Shown here one piece after another: positions 9,701 through 10,990 of a DNA stretch of 61,177 nt (positions are counted from its first letter, which is position 1; each line of letters begins with the position of its first letter). The notes beneath the pieces were generated by a model. It was not told where the DNA came from. It ran no database searches and saw only the letters and a list, made by a program, of their open reading frames with translations. Made by a program: the position numbers and the translations under genes. Source of the DNA: Pelagibacteraceae bacterium (GTDB lineage Bacteria > Pseudomonadota > Alphaproteobacteria > Methylaequorales > Methylaequoraceae); NCBI GenBank assembly GCA_042090305.1, contig JBELJQ010000006.1, positions 1 through 61,177 of the forward strand, in the 5' to 3' direction.

Positions 9701-10417
9701 ATGAAACTAATTTTAGCAATAGATATTAAAAATGGAAAAGTTGTTAAGGCATATGCTGGGTTCAGATTAAACTATAAACCACTTATACTAGATAAAAAAG
9801 ACTTTTCTTGCCCATTCACCTTAATCCAAAAGGCTTATCAAGATCTTAAAATAAATGATATTTATTTAGCCGATTTAGATGCAATTGAAAAAAAACCTTC
9901 TAATAAATTTATAATTTATAGTTTAATGAAACTATTTCCCAAAATTAATTTCCTTTTAGATTTAGGCTTTGACTATCCCTCTACAATTTATAAATTAACA
10001 AACTCATTAAGAAAAAAAAAATTAAAAAATTATAATCTTGTTGTTGGTACCGAAACTATGAAAAACTATAGAATCGAAAACTTTATTATTGGAAAAAAAA
10101 TATTTTTTTCAATTGATTTTAATGGTTATGAGATGAGTTGGGTTGAAAAAATGTATAGAAAAAAAAATTTAAATATTATACTAATGTTTATTAAAAGAAC
10201 TGGAGGGCGAGGAGTTGATTATTTAACTATTAAAAAAGTTGGCAAACTTTTGAAACTACACAACTGTATGATCGCTGGGGGAATAAAATATCTAAGGGAT
10301 TTCAAAAGGCTTTCAACACTCGGTATAACCGGTGCTATTTCCTCAAATTATATTCATAAAATCATTACTAGGGACACATTAGCTGTCCCTAGTAATTTAG
10401 TTACCCTTGAAAAATGA
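9701..10417 (+). CDS. HisA/HisF-related TIM barrel protein (Orf17)
   Basis: LILAIDIKNGKVVKAYAG.R..YKP, IYLADLDAI, VVGTET, IAGGI. Alternative GTG start at 9686. Confidence 0.82.
   Translation: MKLILAIDIKNGKVVKAYAGFRLNYKPLILDKKDFSCPFTLIQKAYQDLKINDIYLADLDAIEKKPSNKFIIYSLMKLFPKINFLLDLGFDYPSTIYKLTNSLRKKKLKNYNLVVGTETMKNYRIENFIIGKKIFFSIDFNGYEMSWVEKMYRKKNLNIILMFIKRTGGRGVDYLTIKKVGKLLKLHNCMIAGGIKYLRDFKRLSTLGITGAISSNYIHKIITRDTLAVPSNLVTLEK
10364..10396 (-). terminator. Intrinsic terminator hairpin of the fae transcript
   Basis: Perfect 13-bp stem ATTACTAGGGACA / TGTCCCTAGTAAT with 7-nt loop, followed on the minus strand by GATTTT. Confidence 0.75.
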
Positions 10418-10480
10418 GAACAACCTTGAAAGCCATCCGCCACCATTAGCATTTTGCGATGGCTTCATGTTGGATGAACT
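10397..10480 (-). other. In-frame extension beyond the fae UGA (SSSNMKPSQNANGGGWLSRLFSFFKGN*), candidate readthrough membrane-targeting tail; alternatively a 23-aa sORF from ATG 10468
   Basis: 27 open codons in the fae frame, ending TAA at 10399-10397 directly before the terminator; 35 of 84 nt are G/C. Confidence 0.6.
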
Positions 10481-10990
10481 TCACTTGGCTGCAAAAGGGT
10501 GTTCAGCTGAATCTTTTTGAGAAACAACTTCACTAGGCTTAGGATCGCCTGAAACTGCTCTCTCGATTGCTTCTTTTGTGGCTGTGTAATTATATTCTTG
10601 GATTTTTTTATCATCCTCTGCTAACCAGTGAATAAATACACCAACAGAAATAAATAGGTTGTCTGCTTCATCTTCTGGAATCGTACCTTCGGCAACACAA
10701 TCCATTACAGCTTTTGCAACACCGTGTTGTGCGGGTCCAAACATTTGAACAGCTTGTTTTGCACCCTTGATTGTTACTTTATTAAACATACAAGTTGCTG
10801 GTTTTGTCATTAAATTTGGCGCCACAACTGCAAGAAGTGCAGTAAAACCATCCTTATTGTTTGTTAAAGCATTAGCAAATGATGTTTCAGCAGGAGTACC
10901 TCTTGGACCGATGATTAAATCAATATGTGCGACTTCATTGCCGTCACCTACAAGTGATTCTCCAACAAGCATTTTTGTAATTTTAGCCAT
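10481..10990 (-). CDS. fae: Formaldehyde-activating enzyme
   Basis: [77 protein letters not shown]. Confidence 0.98.

Follow-up and report, generated by a model that had tools for sequence, protein, structure and literature searches.

The window analysed here is a stretch of 61,177 nt (contig JBELJQ010000006.1 of assembly GCA_042090305.1, positions 1 to 61,177), assigned by GTDB to the Methylaequoraceae. The ORF list and translation revealed on its minus strand, which carries all features described below, a CDS of 169 aa for the formaldehyde-activating enzyme (Fae; 10484..10990). A Pfam profile search matched PF08714 over positions 1-158 of 159 (E 8e-71), and fae was the sole Fae match in the source genome. 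The product of a relative (L199) was aligned to the solved Fae chain 1y5y_A, which we take to be the Methylobacterium extorquens protein, with an E value of 6.5e-104. The gene ends in a conserved, leaky UGA (10481..10483) followed by an A, after which the frame stays open for 27 codons (10480-10400) up to a second, ordinary stop UAA (10397..10399). Directly on the first base past this second stop, a hairpin resembling an intrinsic terminator begins (13 pairs, five of them G-C, loop of 7 nt), followed by a T-rich run (10364..10396); it is also present in the predicted fold of a 141-nt region. The G+C content of 10397-10480 is 35/84. All of these elements, from the end of fae, the TGA with its A, the 27 codons and the TAA to the terminator start and the G+C count, had been described in the first-pass annotation, and our analysis reproduced them. 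A search of Rfam over 9000-12000 gave chance-level matches alone, the best being a microRNA model on the terminator (E 0.021, far under the gathering score).

In the source genome, at least 27 open in-frame codons follow 169 of the 1052 ORFs of at least 200 aa (16%), and 9% of those ORFs of this length that end in TGA. Since equally long extensions follow 16% of long ORFs, the open extension after fae is weak evidence alone; its conservation, unlike the open frame by itself, is beyond chance as judged from the comparisons below. Regarding the reliability of the sequence, the TGA is spanned by contigs of four runs from four studies, two of them on RNA libraries and two on DNA, and no other letter was listed at 10481-10483, a comparison that is insensitive to a minor allele because contigs drop rare variants. 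The RNA-library contigs cover the terminator, the tail, the stop and fae without any sequence difference, while their depth at the fae stop carries no information on the expression level. A sequencing error at the TGA, raised in the first-pass annotation as an objection, was rejected, as RNA and DNA contigs show the same letters.

The arrangement of TGA, 12 nt and an in-frame tail was identified in all 31 fae orthologues found in 42 Methylaequoraceae genomes and in 23 of 24 Methylaequoraceae-like metagenome loci. The order above this family contains the family alone, so that a search at order level returned the same set. The feature had first been taken as local, which turned out not to be so: in another nine families of Alphaproteobacteria, at 34-76% G+C and including Methylobacterium-like genomes, fae is likewise followed by a homologous tail. 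Altogether, 74 of 141 distinct fae 3' regions bear a tail (ten families) and 67 are tail-less, and the tail-bearing Fae diverge down to about 66% identity. Based on this distribution, the layout is old and widespread among alphaproteobacterial methylotrophs. In one gene (L089) the TGA is kept and the tail has decayed, and three tail-less genes are nested within the tail-bearing group in a quick fae tree, which displays clustering only and gives neither a root nor an order of events. The tail can thus be lost.

Comparison of the related fae 3' regions, the check proposed in the first-pass annotation, revealed a marked choice of the first stop. Among the 74 tail-bearing genes it is UGA in 65 and UAG in nine, and UAA was never found, while the 67 tail-less genes end in TGA (30), TAG (19) or TAA (18). 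A T directly after the stop occurs in none of the 72 tail-bearing rows counted, versus 16 of 67 tail-less ones. The second stop, counted in 72 tail-bearing genes, is TAA in 42, TAG in 20 and TGA in 10. Among neighbouring genes of the same 31 genomes, the CitG-like ones end in TAA (29), TGA (1) or TAG (1) and the HisA-like ones in TGA (15), TAA (12) or TAG (3), with one 3' end lying beyond the locus; genome-wide, TAA closes 650 and TGA 213 (20%) of the 1052 long ORFs. Across deep divergence the fae stop has been kept as a stop and has used leaky codons only, as is the case for readthrough signals.

Downstream of the stop, a spacer of 8 nt (10473..10480) leads to a conserved hairpin (10421..10472), which was not mentioned in the first-pass annotation, though it is the main mechanistic feature. 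It consists of a helix of 13 pairs between a 5' arm (10472-10458) and a 3' arm (10437-10421), with a variable loop (10457-10438). Within the Methylaequoraceae, 99% of the cells of the 13-pair helix are paired (46 sequences) and two pairs revealed compensatory changes. Covariation within this family is modest: seven of the 13 pairs are invariant, and the number of pairs changed on both sides was matched by 136 of 500 shuffles. Across lineages, 15 representatives share the register, with 116 of 135 cells paired compared to 24-47% in eight shifted registers, and three pairs are formed in all 15 with two to four pair types. In the lineages folded, the base of the hairpin lies at +11, counted from the first base of the stop, and this position (8-nt spacer) together with the compensatory pair types corresponds to the 3' structures of readthrough signals. 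The 141-nt region revealed a folding z of -5.1; the folding energy of the tail fell below that of peptide-preserving resamples (fraction of at most 0.05) in only 5 of 16 representatives and does not serve as a principal argument here. An alternative hairpin between stop-proximal bases and the Trp region is 95% paired as well, but it leaves a larger number of cells unpaired and scarcely any of its pairs are compensated, so that the 13-pair helix is preferred.

The tail itself behaves like coding sequence. Its helix motif lies in the fae frame in 74/74 tail-bearing genes, and it was not detected in the other frames of the 67 tail-less fae 3' regions. Distances from stop to helix take seven values between 33 and 78 nt, every one a multiple of three. 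Past the 3' end of the hairpin, the tail differs by 0.66/0.48/0.72 at the first, second and third codon positions, with 16% synonymous codon pairs, compared to 0.74/0.74/0.75 and 6% just past the second stop; the last 20 fae codons, taken as a coding control, vary in their C-termini in length by lineage and are out of register in a stop-anchored alignment. Thus, in the related genes, UGA or UAG is kept, the frame is open and synonymous change occurs in the tail. Tail codons 1-15 (10436..10480) encode a linker of variable sequence and length, which changes in threes, and codons 16-27 (10400..10435) encode a conserved peptide whose codons differ synonymously between families. AlphaFold2 gave a pLDDT below 50 for linker residues 174-185 and a helix at residues 186-195 with a confidence of only about 50. 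The helix of the source tail displays a hydrophobic moment of 0.68 and a net charge of +2; all 13 representatives have moments of 0.54-0.76 and charges between +1 and +3, and the amphipathic pattern is retained from 30% to about 70% G+C with differing codons. The earlier description of the tail as a flexible linker followed by a cationic amphipathic helix therefore holds by calculation, as moment, charge and model agree with it. The motif occurs once in the source genome.

A separate peptide of 23 aa from an in-frame AUG (10468-10466), which lies inside the hairpin, had been named as an alternative. Its translation would begin by reinitiation after the UGA, with the hairpin hiding this start from all but ribosomes that unfold it as they terminate; the 5' arm indeed covers the AUG, as is typical of translationally coupled genes. 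All 46 aligned Methylaequoraceae sequences have the AUG, and it stands 12 nt past the stop in every one of them, though its U and G are conserved because both form invariant base pairs of the hairpin. However, in all 11 representatives of other families the helix is preceded by no ATG, GTG or TTG in its frame, and five contain no such start at all, yet frame, peptide and hairpin are kept. A translationally coupled small ORF should have a conserved start and usually a ribosome-binding site; the AUG is confined to the Methylaequoraceae, and inspection of the sequence before it revealed no purine-rich ribosome-binding site. Moreover, neither a stop nor an indel ever occurs in the four codons that separate the fae stop from the AUG, and a free-standing ORF needs no avoidance of UAA at the fae stop (0/74). 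With tails in the other nine families lacking a start before the helix, we regard a separate peptide as unlikely, although for the Methylaequoraceae, with their invariant AUG, reinitiation keeps some probability. An in-frame region under protein-coding constraint, with no start of its own beyond the AUG of this one family, is what stop-codon readthrough would leave behind.

In another reading, the region would be an RNA element only, acting in the 3' UTR of fae on mRNA stability, processing or regulation, with the peptide as a by-product. The hairpin is real and covaries, the 141-nt fold is stable, and several arm codons are invariant at the nucleotide level in the Methylaequoraceae beyond what the peptide needs. 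Such an element would not account for the coding periodicity and synonymous change 3' of the hairpin, nor for linker lengths that all change in threes with a frame open in 74/74, nor for an amphipathic pattern upheld by different codons over so wide a range of G+C, and it leaves the absence of UAA and the missing T after the stop unexplained. We therefore consider it quite improbable.

A hairpin shortly downstream of a UGA within a continuing reading frame also resembles a bacterial SECIS element, and some database gene calls give Trp at the UGA, so that selenocysteine or a UGA read as a sense codon had to be weighed. Unlike in SECIS genes, the selenocysteine machinery is absent: neither tRNA-Sec nor any tRNA with a UCA anticodon was found in the source genome (88% complete), which also revealed no selB over cut-off and no selA, and selA exceeded its cut-off in only 1 of 42 Methylaequoraceae genomes. 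In addition, nine tail-bearing genes carry UAG at the same place. Selenocysteine insertion, proposed earlier as a further alternative, was ruled out by the missing tRNA-Sec, selA and selB, and a sense UGA by the presence of RF2 and by TGA closing 20% of the long ORFs; both together are highly improbable. Finally, that the tail is a relic of a longer Fae after a recent nonsense mutation, or the TGA an assembly error or rare allele, has next to no probability, for despite the open frame and a database protein (P0016) that lacks the stop via two compensating frameshifts, the stop is kept in 74/74 tail-bearing genes down to about 66% Fae identity, four runs of four studies list no other letter, and the P0016 contig is probably error-prone because its N-terminus is disrupted as well.

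Programmed stop-codon readthrough yielding an extended Fae is, in our view, the probable explanation. The recoding idea of the first-pass annotation gained strong support from the comparison (UGA or UAG but never UAA, an in-frame coding tail, a lack of start codons in most lineages and a covarying hairpin). It points to the deliberate production of a minor amount of extended Fae that probably seeks the membrane. From this comparison we infer the occurrence of readthrough as well as the inserted residue, the share of the long form, stimulation by the hairpin and the membrane role, and we propose the following course. Most ribosomes would stop at the UGA and release the ordinary Fae of 169 aa, while a minority would accept a near-cognate tRNA at the UGA, tRNA-Trp being the likeliest. 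The weak stop context and the conserved hairpin 8 nt downstream would assist, with the base of the hairpin presumably meeting the mRNA entrance of the ribosome while the stop occupies the A site. Ribosomes reading through would add 27 residues, of which the first form a disordered linker and the last a short amphipathic helix with positive charge, and the tail would most likely keep some of the Fae at the inner membrane, on its cytoplasmic side. Since the solved Fae chain ends at the stop (169 residues), long Fae is at most a minor species. Fae is a homopentamer, and a low readthrough rate would therefore give one or few tails per particle.

Programmed stop-codon readthrough is established in viruses and eukaryotes, and in bacteria it is mostly seen as noise or a phage trick; we know of no bacterial cellular gene with a 3' hairpin shown to stimulate readthrough. 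In the papers searched, neither readthrough of fae nor an extended C-terminus of Fae is described. In the one paper examined that mentions both 'formaldehyde-activating enzyme' and 'readthrough', the latter refers to transcriptional readthrough. According to Firth et al. (2011, PMC3159437), readthrough with extended 3' stem-loops occurs in alphaviruses and several plant virus genera, and with a pseudoknot in MuLV. The signals described there combine a UGA or UAG stop and a 7-9 nt spacer with a stem of at least about 10 pairs that displays compensatory changes and encloses a less conserved loop. The fae gene shares with them the leaky stop, the short spacer, the compensated stem with conserved arms and the in-frame coding region. 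In contrast, fae is a cellular bacterial gene translated by 70S ribosomes and terminated by RF2 or RF1, its readthrough is predicted, its loop is short (about 6-51 nt), and its extension comprises 17-33 residues rather than a whole protein domain. Stems of this kind were tested in a eukaryotic system, where release proceeds differently than with RF2 or RF1. A bacterial parallel is the coat protein of phage Q-beta, where UGA readthrough yields A1, a minor extended form that joins an oligomer consisting mostly of the short form. Low-rate readthrough of a UGA in a bacterial cell, giving an extended minority in an oligomer, is likewise what we propose for fae. Q-beta A1, however, stems from a phage gene and has a long extension, while fae encodes a chromosomal metabolic enzyme with a membrane-type tail, and to our knowledge the Q-beta coat gene has no conserved 3' hairpin at 8-nt spacing.

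With respect to the tail, MinD and FtsA carry C-terminal amphipathic helices that target them to the membrane. The Fae tail is similar in that, by calculation, a flexible stretch leads into a short amphipathic helix at the C-terminus, and its moment of 0.68 compares to 0.67 for the FtsA of its own genome. It differs in charge (+2, compared to -2 for the acidic FtsA window), revealed no sequence homology, and would be added conditionally by recoding, its membrane binding being a prediction. Taken alone, a role of the tail in holding part of the Fae pool at the membrane has, in our estimation, just short of an even chance. The source genome harbors a gene for a PQQ alcohol dehydrogenase, and a tail binding the inner membrane may allow Fae to capture formaldehyde from periplasmic XoxF, as suggested previously. 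A function as a cargo-targeting peptide for a microcompartment or encapsulin was dismissed, since no match to BMC (PF00936) or encapsulin (PF04454) shell genes was found in the source genome (88% complete).

In a broader sense, an ancient recoding device of the viral type may set, in alphaproteobacterial methylotrophs from streamlined marine lineages to Methylobacterium-like bacteria of soil and plants, the share of Fae that bears a membrane-seeking tail, at about one tether per pentamer where formaldehyde enters the cytoplasm; we put this forward tentatively, its likelihood being somewhat below even. If true, a bacterial housekeeping gene would use conserved programmed readthrough, stimulated by an RNA structure, to place its product at two locations, and bacteria would be seen to employ structure-assisted readthrough for making one protein in two forms. 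The competition between a hairpin and release factors could then be studied in a natural 70S system, and the first cytoplasmic step of formaldehyde metabolism would be organised in space in organisms relevant to marine methanol turnover. The same layout occurs in genomes with a Fae close to the solved structure, which brings the idea within reach of a model organism with established genetics and of proteomes already available.

Two database searches, one of which scored the best 8000 candidates by shared words, so that absence from it carries little weight, revealed no natural fusion of fae and tail with a sense codon at the junction. Apart from the doubly frameshifted P0016, they returned only proteins of 196 and 197 aa from short low-G+C contigs, with W at the position of the stop in all 15 sequences examined, which are presumably gene calls made under table 4. 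Gene callers thus either cut the tail or, on such contigs, read the UGA as Trp, so that databases hold both forms uncommented.

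The fae gene, encoding a formaldehyde-activating enzyme of 169 aa (10990–10484, minus strand; Pfam Fae, E 8e-71), ends in a TGA followed by A (10483–10481, minus), after which 27 codons stay open up to a TAA (10399–10397, minus). Folding revealed a terminator-like hairpin of 13 pairs starting at the base adjoining this TAA (10396–10364, minus). The first-pass annotation had described the same arrangement, including a G+C content of 35/84 in 10397–10480 (whole genome about 30%), and its observation of a leaky-type stop with an in-frame tail is confirmed. The open frame alone is unremarkable, since extensions of at least 27 codons follow 169 of the 1052 long ORFs of the source genome. 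Pfam families of the neighboring genes (methenyl-H4MPT cyclohydrolase, ATP-grasp, CitG-like, His_biosynth, and hydantoinase-like) presumably mark a tetrahydromethanopterin cluster. A convergent His_biosynth-family ORF (9686–10417, plus strand; 243 aa) shares 21 nt with the fae tail and reaches across the terminator hairpin of fae; with a Pfam match that stops at residue 225, its final 18 residues may extend the protein only incidentally, and its stop varies across 31 family genomes (TGA 15, TAA 12, TAG 3). At the contig start, a gene for a PQQ-dependent alcohol dehydrogenase (XoxF/MxaF-type family TIGR03075) is truncated (2–964, minus); its remaining half lies on another contig (C43:1–684), and the halves score 359 and 294 bits.

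The source genome, of 1.53 Mb and 88% completeness, comes from an uncultured family of marine Alphaproteobacteria, which forms the entire order in the genome collection (42 genomes) and whose members are named Alphaproteobacteria, Rickettsiales, or Pelagibacteraceae in public records. A fae orthologue was present in 31 of the 42 genomes, and in all 31 the TGA is separated by 12 nt from an in-frame ATG and the tail closes with a common helix motif, so that UGA and open frame are conserved among relatives, as the proposed programmed readthrough predicts. The stops of two neighboring genes vary among the same 31 genomes. The same layout was found in 23 of 24 family-like metagenome loci; the exception, L089 (fae 93% identical), kept the TGA, lost the AUG, and closes the tail frame after 10 codons, and is a lineage with a lost tail. 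Scanning one genome per species (185,579 species) with a DNA pattern for the tail resulted in 41 matches, of which 31 lie in Alphaproteobacteria, each directly 3' of a fae TGA; the other 10 were found without fae and without the tail peptide, and we take them for chance. Locus L003 (genome G001, same genus) carries an internal in-frame TAG at fae codon 71, owing to an assembly error or because the gene is a pseudogene, and retains TGA and tail at its 3' end. Most relatives also harbor a second, distant Fae-like gene (30–36% identity) lacking a tail, and a search with the fae query found no such paralogue in the source genome.

Beyond the family, stops were read through for searching only, in two samples of 400 genomes each, one from the class and one from the phylum. 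The class sample contained fae in 22 genomes, 14 of them with a stop and a homologous in-frame tail (families f1, f68, f60, f76, f153, f82); in the phylum sample, fae was found in 16 genomes and the tail in 10, adding families f213, f210, f209, and f215, with no tail in the three fae-bearing genomes from outside the class. Two tail types were distinguished, one Ser/Gly-rich and following UGA, the other Pro-rich, opening with a conserved short motif and preceded by UAG in 9 of 10 cases; their helices are plainly related. For counting, we used 141 distinct fae 3' regions from the family, metagenome, class, and phylum searches, leaving out the pattern-derived loci L040–L080 (repeats) and one locus running off its contig, and assigning rows L003 and L104 by hand. 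The first stop of the 74 tail-bearing regions was TGA in 65, TAG in 9, and TAA in none, with T directly after the stop in 0/72; the 67 tail-less regions had TGA in 30, TAG in 19, and TAA in 18, with T following in 16/67. Second stops of tail-bearing genes were ordinary (TAA 42, TAG 20, TGA 10). In a quick, unfinished tree of 118 of the 141 rows (proteins below 165 aa and identical duplicates dropped), the first tail type fell within one group of 47 rows and the second clustered nearby; this group includes three tail-less genes, two of them ending in TAA. Four high-G+C, tail-less loci with TGA (L132, L154, L157, L190) share a conserved stretch straight 3' of the stop, which folds as a G+C-rich hairpin, revealed no peptide conservation, and is probably a terminator.

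The tail looks translated from its pattern of substitution. Among 15 lineage representatives, the share of comparisons differing at codon positions 1/2/3 is 0.66/0.48/0.72 for the part 3' of the stop-proximal hairpin, where 16% of codon pairs are synonymous; just past the second stop, the values are 0.74/0.74/0.75 and 6%. The helix motif lies in the fae frame in every tail-bearing gene and in no other frame downstream of tail-less fae genes, and the stop-to-helix distance takes seven values (33–78 nt), all multiples of three. Together, these comparisons strongly support the proposed readthrough of the fae UGA; literature searches found no earlier description of Fae readthrough or of a C-terminal extension.

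A hairpin in the tail itself (10472–10458 paired with 10437–10421, minus) encloses a variable loop and contains the in-frame AUG. In the family alignment, which comprises the 46 distinct, N-free sequences among 55, 99% of cells in the 13 pairs of this stem are paired; both sides have changed in two pairs, and wobble changes occur in four. For the comparison across lineages, the stop served as anchor for the 5' arm and the invariant Leu codon of the helix for the 3' arm; as the intervening linker is of variable length, these two landmarks are independent of each other. Of 135 cells (bases +11 to +19 in 15 lineages), 116 were paired with the partner fixed by this anchoring, compared with 24–47% of cells in eight shifted registers, and three pairs occurred in 15/15 lineages, each with two to four pair types. 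Because some linker codons lie in the 5' arm and the first helix codons in the 3' arm, peptide and structure constrain each other, which explains the nucleotide-level invariance in the family, AUG included. The stem begins 8 nt after the stop, within the 7–9 nt of viral readthrough stems and equal to the 8 nt of the MuLV pseudoknot, according to passages of Firth et al. (2011, PMC3159437) that also propose that the viral stems act where mRNA enters the ribosome. The structural case is weakened by folding energies, which surpass those of peptide-preserving resamples in no more than 5 of the 16 representatives, by the invariance of 7 of the 13 family pairs, by one covariation measure equalled in 136/500 shuffles, and by an alternative stem that is likewise 95% paired.

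A separate 23-aa peptide, made by reinitiation at the AUG 12 nt past the stop (ATG 10468), is unlikely and conceivable only in the family of the source genome. Homologous tails in other families lack such a start (an in-frame ATG, GTG, or TTG precedes the helix in 0/11 representatives outside the family, and five of them lack one altogether), so that separate initiation is not the general mechanism. An RNA-only element in the fae 3' region does not explain the data, as it leaves the coding signature, the in-frame indels, and the avoidance of UAA unaccounted for. Selenocysteine insertion and a changed genetic code are ruled out by the machinery, which for selenocysteine is missing from the 88% complete source genome, and by UAG use in tail-bearing genes, a recent nonsense mutation by the depth of conservation, and an assembly error by contigs from four studies (two RNA-library runs and two DNA runs), which cover the stop and list no other letter. 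Among the 42 family genomes, selA scored above the cut-off in G015 only, through contamination or because this genome has an isolated selenocysteine system.

Two protein-database searches, one of which scored the 8000 candidates with most words in common, yielded no Fae naturally fused to its tail through a sense codon at the stop. Public collections contain "fused" Fae proteins of 196 and 197 aa on short low-G+C contigs (among P0002–P0015 and P0019–P0025, with P0003 a 137-aa fragment), and all 15 sequences inspected carry Trp at the stop position. They probably stem from gene calling with genetic code 4, so that databases would hold both Fae forms without comment. In P0016, a database Fae on a 10.7-kb contig, a pair of compensating frameshifts, spaced by about 22 nt, removes the stop, and the N-terminus is disrupted; errors in the contig are a likelier cause than natural fusion.

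With regard to function, the helix was amphipathic and cationic in 13/13 representatives chosen from 72 (hydrophobic moment 0.54–0.76, charge +1 to +3), and its moment was matched by 1–5% of order-shuffles. AlphaFold2, run on 35 of 64 distinct read-through products, gave a confident Fae core, residues 174–185 at pLDDT <50, in line with the flexible linker suggested at first, and a helix at 186–195 (pLDDT about 50) undocked from the core. With its flexible linker and its amphipathic, cationic helix at the C-terminus, the Fae tail is laid out like known peripheral membrane anchors, those of MinD and FtsA among them; the C-terminus of the source genome's own FtsA has a similar moment (0.67) and, unlike the Fae tail, an acidic charge. 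In view of this layout, of the lack of any microcompartment or encapsulin shell gene in the 88% complete source genome, and of a helix motif unique within it, we favor as plausible that the tail would tether a minority of Fae subunits to the membrane; the main alternative use is docking to another protein.

The Fae of L199, from a UAG-type genome, matches the solved Fae chain 1y5y_A (E 6.5e-104; about 94% of aligned residues identical, counted from the alignment), which we take to be that of Methylobacterium extorquens AM1. If so, the readthrough hypothesis is directly testable in a standard laboratory methylotroph. Genomes of the L199 genus measure 4.6–6.3 Mb with 67–76% G+C at their fae loci, and the 169 residues of chain 1y5y_A terminate exactly at the fae stop position.
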